Positions 28,736 through 59,659 are shown, counted from the first letter of the stretch. The stretch: 64,000 nucleotides of DNA from a virus (IMGVR_UViG_3300029288_000066:96001-160000), one strand, 5' to 3'. The notes: generated from the letters alone by a model not told the origin. Program-made: numbers and translations.

Positions 28736-30166
28736 TTAACGATTTCTTTTCATTTTTAATTCTCTTTGAGCCTCTCTTTCCTGAGTTTTCTTCTTTTCCA
28801 ATCTTCTTTCTTTAAAGGTAGGTCCAGAGTTTTTGTCCTTTATGTTTAATAAAGGCTTTAGTCTATCAATAATGGTAGCAGTCGGCTCAATAGCCGCTTC
28901 AATCATCTTTGAGCTTTTATACGAATTCGGAGCCTCATCTATAGTGCCACGCACAACCGAAGTAGAATATATTCCTTCCATTTGTTTTCTAAAAGTATCC
29001 ATGTCAAGAGTCTCTTTTGCTTTTGTTCTTGACATGCATCTTCCAGCCCCATGAGGTGAAGAAAAATTCCACTCAACATTTGATTTGCCTTCGCAAACCA
29101 ATATTCCATCTCTCATATTGAATGGGATAATCATTCTCTCTCCAACATAAGAACGGATAGCACCTTTACGAATAATAAAATCCCTAAAGTCAATAAAATT
29201 ATGGATACTTTCTATTTTATCAACTGGGATAATTCCTCCTAATATATTACAAACAATATTAAGCATCATTTCTCTGTTGAACTGTGCGTATTTTTGGGCG
29301 ACAAGCATATCAATAAGATATTCAAAAGCAGCGTTTCCTTCCAAAAATTCCATTCCTTTAACATCAAAATCGAAATCAAGGCCTAATTCTTTTTTTGCCT
29401 CAGAAATTAAAGAAGAAATCTTTGATTTATCTTCAGTGTTTTTTGTGATTTCTTCAATTTTGGCTCTTAAAATGTCGTTTCTGTTGTGGTCAAGTCCCTT
29501 CTTTGCCTTGTCCTGGTGATATTCACAAATCATTTTTCCAAAATTTCTTGACCCAGAGTGAATAGTTACCCAAACATCCCCACAACTATCTGATTTTGAG
29601 ACTTCTATAAAGTGATTGCCCCCACCGAGAGTTCCAATTGACAACTCAGCACGATTTGGCTTCATTCCAATCTTCTTACATAAAGCTCCAAAATCTTTAT
29701 AATCGTATTTACTGTAAGAATAGTTAGTTCCAAATTTTACATTATAAGCCCTAATAAAGGCCAGCATTTCATTATTAAGCACTTCCCAATGAAAGTATTT
29801 ATCAAATGAAAATTTATCATTAAAATTGAATTTAAATTCTTTTTCGTGAGTATTAATTCCCATAGGAACGTCTCTTCTTAATCTATCATCGAATTCTTTT
29901 AAAGTAATGGTTAATTTGCTACCAATGTTTGCTGATAGCATACCGCAGCCTATATCCACAGAGACGACATTAGGAATTATTTTAATTCCCATAGGCATTG
30001 TAAATCCAACACAACTTCCCTTCCCTGCGTGTCCGTCTGGCATTACAACAACTCTATTATCGAATGCAACATGACTAATCATCCTATAAACTTGATTAAT
30101 CATTTCCTGTTCAAACTCATCAATTGTTAAATATGCCGTTGTAAATTTCCCCTTAAGCTCTATCAT
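28736..30166 (-). CDS. rtcB: RtcB RNA ligase
   Basis: MPDGHAG, VDIGCG, GTLGGGNHFIE, HSGSR, HN, HGAGR. Confidence 0.95.
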   Translation of the reverse strand: MIELKGKFTTAYLTIDEFEQEMINQVYRMISHVAFDNRVVVMPDGHAGKGSCVGFTMPMGIKIIPNVVSVDIGCGMLSANIGSKLTITLKEFDDRLRRDVPMGINTHEKEFKFNFNDKFSFDKYFHWEVLNNEMLAFIRAYNVKFGTNYSYSKYDYKDFGALCKKIGMKPNRAELSIGTLGGGNHFIEVSKSDSCGDVWVTIHSGSRNFGKMICEYHQDKAKKGLDHNRNDILRAKIEEITKNTEDKSKISSLISEAKKELGLDFDFDVKGMEFLEGNAAFEYLIDMLVAQKYAQFNREMMLNIVCNILGGIIPVDKIESIHNFIDFRDFIIRKGAIRSYVGERMIIPFNMRDGILVCEGKSNVEWNFSSPHGAGRCMSRTKAKETLDMDTFRKQMEGIYSTSVVRGTIDEAPNSYKSSKMIEAAIEPTATIIDRLKPLLNIKDKNSGPTFKERRLEKKKTQEREAQRELKMKRNR

Positions 30167-57085: not shown

Positions 57086-57173
57086 AATATTTTTATTTAA
57101 TTTTATGAAAATATAAACAAAAAAATAATGAATATCAAATATTTTTTTTCACACTTAATCAAAGAACGTTTTG

Positions 57174-57258
57174 CTGCCGAAGGTGGATTCGAACCACATT
57201 TTAACCTGACCTATTTGTCCTGAGATGACCTTGCAAGGAAAACATCTCTGCTTCAACA
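57174..57258 (-). ncRNA. Atypical tRNA-like RNA (acceptor + T arm, non-canonical middle)
   Basis: TGTTGAAG/CTTCGGCA, GTGG-TTCGAAT-CCAC; GAGATG/CATCTC hairpin instead of D arm. Confidence 0.55.
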
Positions 57259-57264
57259 ATCTTG

Positions 57265-57338
57265 AGCCAACTGGAGGGATTCCAACCCCCGTAATCCGCA
57301 TTACAGGTGCGGCGCATCGAGCACTCTGCCACAGTGGC
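57265..57338 (-). tRNA. tRNA-Thr(TGT), C33 variant with bulged acceptor
   Basis: CCGCA-CCTGTAA-TGCGG. Confidence 0.78.
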
Positions 57339-57345
57339 TTTTCAC

Positions 57346-57422
57346 TGGAGCCGTAGGAGGGATTCGAACCCCCGACATCCTCATTACAAGTGAGGCGCTC
57401 TGGCCAACTGAGCTACAACGGC
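57346..57422 (-). tRNA. tRNA-Thr(TGT)
   Basis: CCTCA-CTTGTAA-TGAGG; encoded CCA. Confidence 0.93.
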
Positions 57423-57431
57423 ATTCTTTTG

Positions 57432-57503
57432 AGCCAATAGAGGGAATCGAACCCCCGAATTCCTCTTTACGAAAGAGGCGCAATACCACTATGCGATATT
57501 GGC
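57432..57503 (-). tRNA. tRNA-Thr(CGT)
   Basis: CCTCT-TTCGTAA-AGAGG. Confidence 0.9.
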
Positions 57504-57512
57504 ATTCTTCAG

Positions 57513-57584
57513 AGCCGACGAAGAGAATTGAACTCTTGACCTCTTCCTTACCAAGGAAGCGCTCTACCTCTGGGCTACGTCGGC
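57513..57584 (-). tRNA. tRNA-Thr(GGT)
   Basis: CTTCC-TTGGTAA-GGAAG. Confidence 0.92.
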
Positions 57585-57590
57585 AGGTTC

Positions 57591-57768
57591 TGTTTAACTG
57601 ATGGGATTCCAACCCACACGTCCTATAACCTGCATTTAATTACCGCACCGCAGCCGCCCTGTGCGAAAAAATTCGAGCCCCGTTAACTGACTAACCATTC
57701 CTCGAATGACGGGGCAAGCGTCGAGGTGTTTACGGTTTAGCGACTAGCAATTCCGCCACAGTTAAACA
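57591..57768 (-). ncRNA. 178-nt tRNA-like RNA with about 120-nt structured insert
   Basis: TGTTTAACTG/CAGTTAAACA stem, D arm GCG..CGC, T arm GTGGG-TTGGAAT-CCCAT. Confidence 0.65.
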
Positions 57769-57769
57769 T

Positions 57770-57846
57770 TGGGTGAAAGGTCGGCTTCGAACCGACAACC
57801 CTCTGAACCACAATCAGATACTCTAACCAATTGAGCTACAATCACC
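57770..57846 (-). tRNA. tRNA-His(GTG)
   Basis: TCTGA-TTGTGGT-TCAGA. Confidence 0.92.
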
Positions 57847-57850
57847 ATAT

Positions 57851-57983
57851 AAAAAAGGGGAAAAGTTAGAACAGGGTTTTTCATGTAAAATCCTGGAGTT
57901 TAACCAGTACCCATTGAATTAAAAGTCAATTGCTCAACACTGAGCTAATTTTACGAAGTAGCTGTTCAGATTGCCACCTTTTT
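57851..57983 (-). ncRNA. Scaffold (Y-RNA-like) ncRNA 2 carrying Lys(TTT)-like tRNA body
   Basis: GTGGCAATCTGAACAGCTACTTCG...CTGTTCTAACTTTTCCCC enclosing TAGCTCAG..GAGC, ATTGA-CTTTTAAT-TCAAT. Confidence 0.7.
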
Positions 57984-58016
57984 ATGTTTTCAATATTTTA
58001 AAGAACTTATTCTTAG

Positions 58017-58090
58017 GGTGTCGAACCAGATTCGAACTGGCGTTGACTAAGGTCACAGCTTAGCCGTAGAAACCAACACTACACCGACAC
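58017..58090 (-). tRNA. tRNA-His(GTG)
   Basis: CTAAG-CTGTGAC-CTTAG. Confidence 0.83.
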
Positions 58091-58092
58091 AG

Positions 58093-58177
58093 AAGGGGAG
58101 GAGGGATTCGAACCCCCGTAAACCCGAAGGCACTAACGTTAACAGCGTTCCGCTCTGACCAACTGAGCTACACCCCC
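58093..58177 (-). tRNA. tRNA-Asn(GTT), long variable arm
   Basis: AACG-CTGTTAA-CGTT; GCC-TTCG-GGT variable hairpin. Confidence 0.85.
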
Positions 58178-58189
58178 ATGTAATTTTTT

Positions 58190-59035
58190 TTATTTTTTAT
58201 AATCTTTTAGCCATTTTCTAATTGCATTGTCAGAAACACCATATTTTTTGCCAACCGCACAATAATTTGTTTTTTTAATTTCTTGCATCAACTGTTCATA
58301 AGACGGCCTTTCAACCCTTCTTCTACTTTTTTTATAACAATCTATACATTCTTTTGCTTTTACATCCTTCTCTTTCCCACATTTGCAAACTCTTGTTTTT
58401 TCACTTTTCCTTTTAATGTTTCTAAAACAATATGTGTTTAACGTAGAATCACAATTTGGACATATGATTCTTAGATTTTTTAATCTATTATCCATATGAT
58501 TTCCATTAATATGGTCAAGAATTAAAATTAATTTATTTCCATTCCAATTTACATCCTGTCCACACAACTCACAACATTCTTTTTTTAAACCTTCATCATA
58601 CAATCTTTTTTTAAAATTAGAAGGTAAGCTTTTTCCAACTACAAAATAATATTCAATTGGGTTCTTTTTGCAACCAGTAATTACACCTTGTTCTTTTAAT
58701 CGCTTATACAGCTCTTTTTTTCCAGTAAAATGTGAAATGTCTACATTATATCGAGCAATATAGTTTTTTATTGTTGTAAAACTTGCAGATGCTGGATTAA
58801 TATTAAGATTTCTTAAAGCATCAGAATAAGAATATGCATTTTTAACAGCTTCTAGTATTTCTTTTTCTGAATATTTCCAAATTCCATACTTTGCAACTTT
58901 TAAACCAAGACGCTTTGCTTTATGAGCTACGGAATGTTTACTCTTGCCTAACTTTCGAGAACAATATATAGCACCATGCTCTTCATAATTGTTCTTAAGA
59001 AATAAAATTTCATTTTCTACCCATTTATATTTCAT
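58190..59035 (-). CDS. HNH homing endonuclease
   Basis: CELC...LDHINGNHMDNRLKNLRIICPNC; C-terminal HTH. Confidence 0.9.
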   Translation of the reverse strand: MKYKWVENEILFLKNNYEEHGAIYCSRKLGKSKHSVAHKAKRLGLKVAKYGIWKYSEKEILEAVKNAYSYSDALRNLNINPASASFTTIKNYIARYNVDISHFTGKKELYKRLKEQGVITGCKKNPIEYYFVVGKSLPSNFKKRLYDEGLKKECCELCGQDVNWNGNKLILILDHINGNHMDNRLKNLRIICPNCDSTLNTYCFRNIKRKSEKTRVCKCGKEKDVKAKECIDCYKKSRRRVERPSYEQLMQEIKKTNYCAVGKKYGVSDNAIRKWLKDYKK

Positions 59036-59101
59036 ATTGACATCTTTATTATAAATATGCCAAAAAATTATTTTTTCAATATTTCAAAGAACTTAATTTT
59101 G

Positions 59102-59188
59102 CGTTTCCTGTAAGATTCGAACTCACGATGGGGATTACTCCTCGTCAGGTTAACAGCCTGATGCCGTCGGCCACTTGGCTAAAGAAAC
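59102..59188 (-). tRNA. tRNA-Asn(GTT), long variable arm
   Basis: TCAGG-CTGTTAA-CCTGA. Confidence 0.87.
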
Positions 59189-59191
59189 ATA

Positions 59192-59349
59192 AATTCGGGG
59201 AAAAGGAGCAAAAGTGTTTTTTCTATACTCTAACCAACTGAGCTACGTGCTCCATTTTTTTTATTATTTGGGAGCACGACTGGACTCGAACCAGCGACCT
59301 TTTGTTATCAAGACAAATGCGAAGTAACTTTTACAATTGCCACCGAATT
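59192..59349 (-). ncRNA. Scaffold (YrlA-like) ncRNA 3 carrying circularly permuted tRNA
   Basis: Order: anticodon-like arm, T arm, acceptor 3' strand, linker, acceptor 5' strand, D arm, inside GTGGCAAT..TTACTTCG/CACTTTT..TTTTCCCC. Confidence 0.75.
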
Positions 59350-59375
59350 ATTTCAAAATTTTAAAGAACGATATA

Positions 59376-59410
59376 AAACAAAAAACCCAGACTCTTTTGG
59401 AATCTGGGTG
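59376..59410 (-). terminator. Attenuator terminator, Asn/His/Thr operon
   Basis: ACCCAGATTC-CAAAA-GAGTCTGGGT + TTTTTGTTTT; 5' arm complementary to GTCTGGGTG in leader. Confidence 0.87.
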
Positions 59411-59431
59411 GCTTTTTGTTTTCTTATATTT

Positions 59432-59521
59432 TTATTTTAAGATAGACATATTACACCCAGACACACATGTATTATTATGTTTGTTGGTCTTCGTGTTAAT
59501 ATGTATACTTAAAGCTAACAT
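59432..59521 (-). CDS. Attenuator leader peptide MLALSIHINTKTNKHNNTCVSGCNMSILK
   Basis: CAT ATT AAC ACG AAG ACC AAC AAA CAT AAT AAT ACA. Confidence 0.83.
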   Translation of the reverse strand: MLALSIHINTKTNKHNNTCVSGCNMSILK

Positions 59522-59537
59522 TTCAATATTTCCTTTT

Positions 59538-59603
59538 TATTTAAATAGTATGATTTTTTTACTTTCTACGCAAAGGTACAAAAAAAGTTACATTAAATGC
59601 AAG
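59538..59603 (-). promoter_or_regulatory. tRNA-operon tandem promoter repeat, copy 3
   Basis: Near-identical to copies 1 and 2 (TACCTTTG variant). Confidence 0.8.
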
Positions 59604-59659
59604 TTTTTTTTCGTTTATTTTTAAAATAATTTTTAAGTTGTTGATTGTTAATAATTTAA

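Follow-up and report, generated by a model that had tools for sequence, protein, structure and literature searches.

The analysed window is a 64,000-nucleotide stretch from the genome of a large uncultured phage, and the locus described here occupies positions 59603-57172 of its minus strand, on which all the features given below are located. As read from the sequence, a promoter is followed by a 29-codon open reading frame (ORF; 59521-59432), an intrinsic terminator (59409-59374) and a block of tRNA genes, comprising two tRNA-Asn, two tRNA-His and three tRNA-Thr genes together with one non-canonical Thr-like tRNA. The predicted promoter (59603-59571) contains a TTG (59602-59600) separated by a 21-nt spacer from TACCTTTG (59578-59571), which, by its likeness to Bacteroides promoters, we take to be a Bacteroidota-type TAnnTTTG -7 box. 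The promoter block of approximately 48 nt is also present, with 0-1 mismatches, ahead of the Leu/Cys and Gln/Phe/Arg leaders of this phage. The leader ORF begins about 50 nt past the -7 box (ATG at 59521) and ends with TAA (59434-59432) after 29 codons; its codons 6-18 constitute the putative sensor patch, IHINTKTNKHNNT (59506-59468).

Beyond the terminator, the motif GTTCTTTAAAATTTTGAAAT (59369-59350) precedes a Y RNA-like scaffold RNA (scaffold A; 59343-59195), in which a T-arm, a closed acceptor-like stem and a D-arm lie inside a long 5'/3' stem. The two tRNA-Asn genes (anticodon GUU; GTT in the DNA), one of 88 nt with a long extra arm (59188-59101) and one of 86 nt (58177-58092), are separated by a 281-aa ORF (59035-58190). 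They are followed by a tRNA-His gene (GUG; GTG in the DNA; 58090-58016), a second Y RNA-like scaffold RNA (scaffold B; 57977-57860), inside which lies a tRNA-like domain (57954-57884) whose anticodon loop reads UUU, the other tRNA-His gene, also GUG (57845-57771), and element C (57768-57590), an RNA of approximately 180 nt that is predicted to fold (-54.1 kcal/mol) into a structure including a T-arm and an acceptor-like stem of 10 bp and that has no match in Rfam. The tRNA-Thr cluster (57584-57266) is composed of genes with the anticodons GGU (57584-57512), CGU (57503-57431) and UGU (57422-57346) and of the Thr-like gene (57338-57266); adjacent to it is element E (57262-57172), a conserved RNA with a tRNA-like fold. 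A 127-aa ORF (57085-56702), which belongs to no Pfam family and around which a search for a terminator-like site found none, separates this block from the next. The latter begins with its own gate (56720-56470), i.e. a decayed copy of the shared promoter, a Lys/Ile leader ORF (56618-56535) and a terminator, behind which are located four Lys, three Ile and one Met tRNA genes.

The 281-aa ORF likely encodes a homing endonuclease with a C-terminal helix-turn-helix (HTH) domain. Pfam gives weak, sub-cut-off HTH matches and no match to an HNH family, and the sole DNA match obtained by blastn falls within the tRNA region of LR756504.1. In a 372-kb relative (G006), an ORF that we read as HNH-like resides elsewhere in the same operon, at a different position.

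All 13 codons of the sensor patch specify His, Asn, Thr, Lys or Ile; nine of them correspond to the Asn, His and Thr tRNAs of the operon behind the leader, and four to the Lys and Ile tRNAs of the next one. An earlier note on this DNA had matched three Thr codons to three Thr anticodons and had counted two CAT and four AAC or AAT codons, all of which we confirmed. ACG (codon 10), ACC (codon 12) and ACA (codon 18) correspond to the downstream anticodons CGT, GGT and TGT, CAT is present at codons 7 and 15 ahead of the two tRNA-His (GTG) genes, and two AAC and two AAT codons lie within the patch ahead of the two tRNA-Asn (GTT) genes; a fifth Asn codon, AAT, is found outside the patch at codon 24. 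The description of the operon as containing four Thr tRNAs proved correct for three, identified by ARAGORN, but the fourth (57338-57266) is detected by Rfam only (38.8 bits). It has the anticodon UGU, but its C at position 33 and odd T-loop (read by eye) make it non-canonical. Since His, Asn and Thr together account for only 13.4% of the residues in the long ORFs of the phage, the probability of finding at least nine of them among 13 is 6 × 10⁻⁶. For 13 out of 13 residues from the His/Asn/Thr/Lys/Ile set it is 3 × 10⁻⁷, and a chance origin of the codon composition of the patch is therefore excluded. The provision of a Watson-Crick codon for each Thr isoacceptor has a probability of approximately 0.04 given codon usage.

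The same relationship was observed for other leaders. When the six leaders of this genome were compared with its six operons, 75 residues were matched versus a mean of 30, and the true pairing was the unique best of 720. In a set of 20 leaders from five large phages, detected regardless of their amino-acid composition, the leader-operon match gave z = 11.7, with none of 200,000 permutations reaching the observed value, and all of the operon isotypes were found in their own leaders (68/68). The match was confined to the frame of the ORF (182 vs 64 and 56 in the other frames), and for 64 of 78 split-box codons the leader's own operon supplies a tRNA able to read them. Arg codons in the leaders track the Arg anticodon that is present, with the exception of three AGA codons whose tRNA belongs to the next operon, and this choice holds even though CGC constitutes only 2% of the Arg codons of the phage. 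Complementarity of the ORFs to their own terminator arms summed to -273.7, compared with -171.6 +/- 11.1 for the arms of other leaders (z = -9.2; 0/100,000), and in most leaders the antiterminator segment is located just past the patch.

The pairing proposed in the earlier note, of GTCTGGGTG (59462-59454) with CACCCAGAT (59410-59402), was reproduced by computation, giving eight Watson-Crick pairs and one G-U pair with a predicted energy of -15.7 kcal/mol. These strands represent region 2, the antiterminator strand GUCUGGGUG, placed within codons 20-23 of the ORF, and region 3, CACCCAGAU, which is also the 5' arm of the terminator. Region 1 (59513-59487), the 5' strand of a 1:2 hairpin (anti-antiterminator), overlaps the early sensor codons; this hairpin is present in the minimum free energy (MFE) fold of the leader, and its wider 3' strand extends beyond region 2 to position 59436. 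The terminator has a 10-bp stem (59409-59385), a 5-nt loop and a U6GU4 tract (T6GT4 in the DNA), and includes region 4 (59394-59385). The predicted energy of the 1:2 helix is -18.8 kcal/mol, and that of the 3:4 helix -14.7 (core) or -21.7 kcal/mol (extended). The locus thus contains each element of a classical attenuator: a leader ORF, regulatory codons, a terminator between the ORF and the tRNAs, an antiterminator and a 1:2 helix.

Equilibrium folding of the full-length leader with a ribosome mask at every codon always produced the terminator, so that any switch would have to be kinetic, as in trp. Because such folding is uninformative for a kinetic switch, we instead folded an RNA truncated before region 4, with the ribosome placed codon by codon. 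The antiterminator was the MFE structure of this RNA for a ribosome at codons 1-16 and was gone at codons 17-27; stalls at codons 17-18 would cover region 2, and antitermination is therefore not expected there. In this simple masking model the 2:3 pair can form again for a ribosome at codons 28-30, since the stop codon is situated 20 nt beyond region 2, which a ribosome at the stop leaves uncovered. We argue that a ribosome waiting at the stop would block the 2:3 pairing sterically.

An orthologue of the attenuator unit, with the same gene order, is present in the 372-kb relative. From the leader to the terminator the two sequences share 87% identity without gaps, compared with 56% at the amino-acid level for the 127-aa ORF next to the tRNA block. 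The leader ORF has the same length and frame, while its flanking residues differ; the replacements within the patch (K11N, N13H and N17T) all remain in the set, and ACC shifts from codon 12 to codon 17. All nine antiterminator pairs and all ten terminator pairs are kept (with one G-U changed to A-U), as is the core of the 1:2 hairpin, with one double change and two wobble changes. Covariation within this attenuator, as judged from two orthologues, is thin: one one-sided change in the 2:3 helix and one double change in the 1:2 helix. Regions 2, 3 and 4 of the following gate have diverged between the two phages, with the pairing retained (GCUGGG:CCCAGC vs GAAUGGG:CCCAUUC). Scaffold RNA A is also conserved in this relative, and element E has changes on both strands of its long stem.

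Further relatives were sought in several ways. Exact searches of viral contigs with the shared promoter yielded either no matches or only chance matches within coding sequence, and in metagenome contigs its core was found in two relatives of other leaders, not of this one. No relative of the ORF located upstream of the promoter was found among the viral contigs, and the RtcB relatives were fragments without a useful leader. A blastn comparison of the whole operon with cultured phages matched only the tRNAs, in addition to one 636-kb metagenomic phage, and therefore no culturable relative was found. A second exact pattern, derived from region 2, recovered only the 372-kb contig; the collections searched thus hold two orthologues of this attenuator.

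The earlier reading of the locus as an attenuator is supported by the codon match, its frame specificity, the specificity of the antiterminator for its own terminator and the conservation in the orthologue. Taking this into account, we consider it likely, with good though not full confidence, that the leader is a trp-type, ribosome-mediated leader-peptide attenuator which senses decoding capacity and regulates the tRNA block. The phage would then probably make Asn, His and Thr tRNAs only when the corresponding codons are decoded slowly. Translation of the leader ORF, the switch, its physiological signal and the read-through into the Lys/Ile unit are components that we infer from the sequence. 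Transcription would start at the promoter near position 59600, and a ribosome would translate the 29-codon leader. Were the ribosome delayed at codons 6-16 (His, Asn, Thr, Lys and Ile), it would cover region 1 and leave region 2 (59462-59454) free to capture region 3 (59410-59402) as this emerges, so that the terminator stem would be prevented and the polymerase could reach the tRNA genes. With fast reading, the ribosome would occupy region 2 or the 43-nt gap between regions 2 and 3, the 3:4 helix would form and transcription would stop at the U-tract; without translation, the 1:2 hairpin would sequester region 2, leading to termination as well. Output should thus rise when decoding capacity for these codons is short, possibly owing to a scarce host pool, to tRNAs cleaved by host nucleases or to phage tRNAs that have yet to accumulate, and should fall once phage tRNAs make up the shortfall; this would constitute a negative feedback loop.

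A ribosome reads only the availability of aminoacyl-tRNA and cannot distinguish scarce tRNA from scarce amino acid, and the structure is identical in kind to trp-type leaders. The same attenuator might therefore respond to amino-acid starvation, with uncharged tRNA as the true signal, as in classical biosynthetic operons. We regard this as unlikely, since extra tRNA would presumably give no relief from a shortage of amino acids, leaving a loop without benefit, and the match extends down to the isoacceptor or codon box (Arg CGN vs AGR, Ile ATA vs ATY, a separate codon for each of three Thr tRNAs), for which an amino-acid sensor has no need. A leader that acts as RNA only, with an untranslated ORF (an insulator terminator or a T-box-like tRNA riboswitch, the codon match reflecting codon-anticodon contacts or chance), could be suggested by the presence of only a weak AAGGA box upstream of the ORF and of none in the orthologue. 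In Bacteroidota, however, it is normal for a Shine-Dalgarno box to be weak or missing, and at E <= 1 the interval 57100-59620 matched neither the T-box family (RF00230) nor, beyond noise level, any other riboswitch family. Moreover, the match is restricted to one frame bounded by the ATG and the stop codon, the length and frame of the ORF are retained in the orthologue while flanking residues change, and the statistics dispose of chance, which together make this explanation highly improbable.

It may also be asked whether a translated, ribosome-controlled gate is of consequence to the tRNAs at all, since the conserved GTTCTTTAAAATATTG motif right behind the terminator (59369-59350) could serve as an independent promoter or operator. 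In that case the gate would be largely bypassed, and the attenuator would be stage-limited or a relic. The motif is present in about 10 copies on this strand, all of them within tRNA regions; it is found behind every leader terminator and also inside operons, preceding RNA genes, is retained in relatives, including distant ones, and its ends form a TTC...GAA half-palindrome resembling a protein-binding site. However, it also occurs close behind the 3' ends of tRNAs, where a processing signal would fit equally well. The TAnnTTTG box that marks the strong promoters of this phage is absent from it, and a relic would not be expected to retain 87% identity and in-set substitutions. We consider such a bypass very unlikely.

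For the Lys and Ile codons of the patch, the earlier note had pointed both to a Lys-like scaffold RNA within the operon and to the Lys/Ile operon downstream, and the evidence favours the latter. The Lys-like tRNA of scaffold B, an element set in a Y RNA-like scaffold, was rejected as the source of the Lys codons, its orthologue in the relative having the anticodon UUA, not UUU. The codons in question are ATA, ATT, AAG and AAA, and the isoacceptors downstream are Ile TAT, Ile GAT, Lys CTT and Lys TTT. The Lys/Ile unit has its own attenuator but only the decayed copy of the shared promoter, and in 5/5 tandem leader pairs examined (this pair and four others) the upstream leader contains the isotypes of the next operon. 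Given the matching isoacceptors, the decayed promoter and the pattern in tandem pairs, the Lys and Ile codons appear best explained by nesting: they would let the gate open also for the Lys/Ile/Met block, which would be transcribed as part of the same unit, past a second gate.

Such nesting would amount to a wiring principle, in which an upstream leader holds the union of the downstream codon sets. As a tentative extension, which we rate somewhat below even chances, the phage may possess a hierarchical, demand-driven tRNA supply, with one promoter serving serial sub-operons, each behind a codon-matched gate, and with upstream gates carrying downstream codons, so that a shortage anywhere downstream would open all gates en route. 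Such an arrangement could act as a damage sensor: if particular host tRNAs were lost to anticodon nucleases or to turnover induced by the phage, only the set replacing them would be switched on, alongside the RtcB, RlaP and Ro60/Y RNA repair genes.

Leader attenuators responding to several amino acids are well known from enterobacteria, e.g. those of thr (Thr and Ile codons) and ilvGMEDA (Ile, Leu and Val), in addition to trpL, hisL and pheL. The phage leader shares with them a short ORF rich in regulatory codons, the 1:2, 2:3 and 3:4 helices, a terminator preceding the genes and several amino acids per leader. The pheL leader exemplifies the leader-peptide attenuators of enterobacterial amino-acid operons (PMC3082878). 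Unlike these systems, the phage leader would regulate tRNAs and not biosynthetic enzymes, its patch reflects the tRNA isotypes of the operon that follows and, for the most part, their anticodons as well, its ORF runs through region 2 and ends 20 nt past it, and the module is reused for each tRNA block and stacked in series. A closer parallel in terms of target is the attenuator of pheST, encoding the phenylalanyl-tRNA synthetase of E. coli, where leader-peptide attenuation likewise acts on the translation machinery and is keyed to the cognate codon; in contrast to the phage leader, it belongs to a host gene, controls a protein (the synthetase) and responds to a single amino acid. T-box riboswitches, which control translation-related genes, similarly link transcription attenuation to a specific tRNA and its state, but they bind uncharged tRNA directly via one specifier codon, independently of the ribosome.

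tRNA genes are usually regarded as constitutive or as governed by growth rate, and the tRNA arrays of phages as simple extras. These arrays have also been seen as countering tRNA-targeting host defences or compensating for codon usage. Near-complete tRNA sets accompanied by RNA repair genes are found in large phages, and the phage described here encodes RtcB, RlaP and a TROVE protein. The literature found, as far as its accessible parts extend, treats phage tRNA genes as plainly expressed and does not describe a demand-sensing gate; nor was a description of leader-peptide control of tRNA genes found in the accessible full texts or by word look-ups in papers on huge phages. We propose that textbook leader-peptide attenuation is applied here to tRNAs, the speed at which codons are read deciding the synthesis of the matching tRNAs. 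If this is true, it would be the first case of feedback in which tRNA transcription is under the direct control of decoding capacity, and it would explain why the tRNAs of large phages are sorted by amino acid into separate operons. Synthetic biology and studies of tRNA-targeting immunity would moreover gain ready isoacceptor-specific sensors of the tRNA supply.

The Lys-like scaffold mentioned above is, according to its modelled fold, a Y RNA-like RNA. In scaffolds A and B, as well as in a copy from the Leu operon, the predicted folds place a tRNA-like module (T-arm, closed acceptor-like stem and D-arm) within a long stem in which the 5' end pairs with the 3' end, and the inner helix varies between copies yet pairs (AAAAGU/ACUUUU, GAACAG/CUGUUC). 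The tRNA-like domain of scaffold B scores 48.3 bits with the Rfam tRNA model. Scaffold A has a sub-threshold match to YrlA (30.8 bits, local E = 3 × 10⁻⁵; Rfam gathering score of 69 not reached), limited to the tRNA-like core (model positions 27-81). A TROVE (Ro60/Rsr) match of 72.5 bits was found in a 531-aa ORF (G000:213494-215089), directly upstream of which lie three tandem scaffold-type RNAs, and the same genome encodes RtcB and RlaP. In view of the YrlA match and the TROVE gene, an interpretation of 59343-59195 as a circularly permuted tRNA gene was dropped in favour of a Y RNA-like module.

The Asn/His/Thr tRNA operon of this phage, whose genes lie mainly on the minus strand of a 228,886-bp contig (32% G+C, 82% complete by the CheckV estimate; 53 tRNAs and one tmRNA according to ARAGORN), is quite probably controlled by a working, decoding-sensitive attenuator. 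Re-reading of the minus strand reproduced all the details of leader and operon listed in the earlier note. A promoter (TTG at 59602-59600, 21 nt, then TACCTTTG at 59578-59571), whose type, and this alone, points to a host among the Bacteroidota, precedes a leader ORF of 29 codons (59521-59432) and a 10-bp terminator hairpin with U6GU4 (59409-59374). Behind the terminator lie, on the same strand, two Asn and two His tRNAs, Thr tRNAs with the anticodons GGU, CGU and UGU, and a fourth Thr-like one called by Rfam only; of the four Thr tRNAs counted previously, the fourth is non-canonical. Interspersed among them are a 281-aa ORF (59035-58190) and four structured RNAs, two of which are scaffolded and tRNA-like.

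The composition of the leader matches that of the operon. Leader codons 6-18 (the patch) encode I H I N T K T N K H N N T. In the long ORFs of this phage, 13.4% of residues are His, Asn or Thr, and the probability of finding at least 9 of them in 13 positions is 6e-6, while that of 13/13 residues from the set H/N/T/K/I is 3e-7. Five other tRNA blocks of the genome are preceded by the same layout, with a near-identical 48-nt promoter at three of these. When the six leaders were compared with the six operons, 75 residues matched (mean 30), and the true assignment was the single best of 720. ARAGORN tRNAs of the whole genome cover 19 amino acids, none of them Glu, which is in line with the lack of a Glu-rich patch in any of the six leaders.

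In other phages, ORFs were picked by position only (ending no more than 75 nt upstream of a terminator preceding tRNAs); sources of leaders included the 636-kb LR756504.1, reached by chance via a match to the 281-aa ORF, and three IMG/VR phages (476, 289 and 123 kb), reached via the conserved leader start MKNLTNI. For 20 distinct leaders from 5 phages, the match between leader and own operon gave z = 11.7, a value reached in 0/200,000 permutations, and the operon isotypes were present in the own leader in 68/68 cases; in one leader, the 14 patch residues comprise the ten isotypes of its eleven tRNAs and no others. The match is limited to the ORF frame (182 vs 64 and 56 in the other two). A tRNA of the same operon can read 64 of the 78 Arg, Ser, Leu and Ile leader codons, and Arg codons track the Arg anticodon present (CGN with ACG, AGR with UCU or CCU), the exceptions being three AGA codons, for which the matching tRNA lies in the next operon. 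The first seven codons (MKNLTNI) are common to leaders of different operons and distantly related phages (window 22139; L043:4170, L059:1164 and L070:3552 in stretches of this phage or its relatives). This implies a leader module of probable common origin, in which only the patch and the terminator arms would have been exchanged.

The predicted minimum free energy fold of the leader comprises a long hairpin of regions 1 and 2 within the ORF, and the terminator. Region 2 (GUCUGGGUG, 59462-59454, codons 20-23) also pairs with region 3 (59410-59402), which doubles as the 5' arm of the terminator. The helix energies are -18.8 kcal/mol for 1:2 (anti-antiterminator), -15.7 for 2:3 (antiterminator) and -14.7 (core) or -21.7 (extended) for 3:4 (terminator), and on the full-length RNA the terminator wins in every fold. 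In the trp attenuator, by textbook values, the terminator is likewise the more stable helix; as there, the decision must be kinetic. In RNA cut off before region 4, a ribosome at codons 1-16 allows the antiterminator to form, and one at codons 17-27 abolishes it. With the ribosome at the stop codon, masking alone would permit 2:3 pairing; since the ribosome would have 30 of the 43 nucleotides of the loop threaded through it, we infer that the 2:3 helix would be unable to close, and this block is the weakest step of the model. The ORFs of 22 leaders are each complementary to the terminator arm that follows them in preference to the arms of the other leaders (z = -9.2, 0/100,000), and the antiterminator segment is found shortly past the patch in most. 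This geometry fixes the regulatory sign: slow decoding of leader codons would give read-through into the tRNA operon.

Such a mechanism would be that of the classical leader-peptide attenuator, among which the multivalent leaders of thr and ilv come nearest to this one. The Asn/His/Thr leader-operon region gave no match to the T-box or any other riboswitch. Neither the full texts searched, which include few subscription journals, nor the huge-phage papers covering or citing LR756504 yielded a description of tRNA genes under leader-peptide control. The present locus offers a clear nested gate pair (each gate being a leader ORF with its terminator), an orthologue with in-set substitutions and a Y RNA-like reading of the scaffold. 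A motif with TTC...GAA ends, GTTCTTTAAAATATTGAAAA, is found behind each leader terminator and behind several tRNA 3' ends. Its approximately ten copies (minus strand; window 59369, 59092, 58006, 56054, 43760 and 21987, and others beyond the window) all lie in tRNA regions, and similar motifs are present in four related phages; the copy at 59369-59350, immediately behind the terminator of this leader, may act as a promoter, operator or processing site.

The 127-aa ORF that lies downstream of the operon, used as a protein query, led to a complete 372-kb phage, G006 (IMGVR_UViG_3300014208_000024), with orthologues of all six leaders and an identical gene order (leader, Asn, Asn, His, scaffolded tRNA-like RNA, His, three Thr, ORF, Lys/Ile leader, four Lys). 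From ATG to U-tract (150 nt) the two phages align without gaps at 87% identity, the neighbouring protein being 56% identical. The terminator and antiterminator pairs are all kept, with one G-U changed to A-U, as is the core of the 1:2 hairpin, with one double and two wobble changes. The patch replacements (K11N, N13H and N17T) all stay within the H/N/T/K/I set, while eight residues outside the patch change freely. The sole ACC codon is shifted from position 12 to 17, and thus ACG, ACC and ACA are all still sampled. Pairing is also kept in the Lys/Ile gate, where the sequences of regions 2, 3 and 4 are not the same in the two phages. This pattern of conservation, coming from two sequences, is suggestive and not statistically strong. 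The 281-aa ORF, with weak Pfam HTH matches only and no HNH family in Pfam, is likely a homing endonuclease; the ORF of this type is placed differently in the same operon of the relative (L084:5153-5819, a stretch of G006), as would be expected of a mobile homing gene. Both tRNA-Asn genes (59188-59101 and 58177-58092) have a long extra arm, in one case with a UUCG-capped stem, and measure 86-88 nt, against 73-75 nt for their orthologues; we know of no type-II-like Asn tRNA elsewhere.

The Lys and Ile codons of the patch had been ascribed either to a Lys-like scaffold RNA inside the operon or to the Lys/Ile operon directly downstream. The former was rejected: the orthologue of this element has the anticodon UUA, and the element itself is read as Y RNA-like. 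The latter is borne out codon by codon, ATA, ATT, AAG and AAA each matching one isoacceptor of the next block (Ile UAU, Ile GAU, Lys CUU and Lys UUU). That block has a Lys- and Ile-rich leader (56618-56535, minus strand) followed by its own terminator, and the region 5' of this leader is, in both phages, a decayed copy of the shared promoter without the TTG element and the TAnnTTTG box. No terminator-like site was found between the two blocks. Furthermore, in 5/5 tandem leader pairs examined the upstream leader carries the isotypes of the next operon (1.0-3.0 residues per isotype vs 0.15-0.48 for unrelated operons); for instance, Gln codons occur in the leader of an Asp/Pro block, with a Gln block next, and a leader with AGA, Ile and Met codons precedes an Arg(UCU)/Ile/Met block. 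We conclude from these sequence comparisons that the gates are probably nested, the Asn/His/Thr gate also serving the Lys/Ile/Met block, into which transcription would read through. In the decayed promoter copy ahead of the Lys/Ile leader, an AT-rich hairpin (AUGAAAC, U7, GUUUCAU) conserved in both phages occupies the place of the -33 and -7 boxes (window 56700-56660; L084:6395-6430).

The Lys-like element is built on a scaffold that recurs in the genome (GUGGCAAU, helix, ACUUCG, insert, helix, UUUUCCC), in six strict copies and in variant copies upstream of a TROVE (Ro60/Rsr) gene. Copies with tRNA-like inserts lie in tRNA operons (59343-59195, 57977-57860 and 43731-43600), the first of them matching the Y RNA-like family YrlA below threshold, and a tandem array of three more lies immediately upstream of the TROVE gene (G000:215524-215100, minus strand, or L080:2500-2950; gene at G000:213494-215089, in coordinates of the phage genome). 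We read the scaffold elements within the tRNA operons as putative Y RNA-like RNAs of the phage; together with the TROVE gene they suggest a Ro60-Y RNA system in this phage, which also encodes RtcB (28736-30166) and RlaP (411-1592). The operon also contains an approximately 180-nt structured RNA (57768-57590), whose fold has a T-arm and an acceptor-like stem of 10 bp, and a 91-nt tRNA-like RNA (57262-57172) whose long stem is changed on both strands in the relative (L084:5825-5915). Finally, this phage and its relatives possess suppressor-type tRNAs with the anticodons CUA (reading UAG) and UUA (reading UAA) (G000:196604-196678; two copies in L089; L084:4488-4560; L075:4958), which hints at possible stop-codon reassignment in part of the infection cycle.
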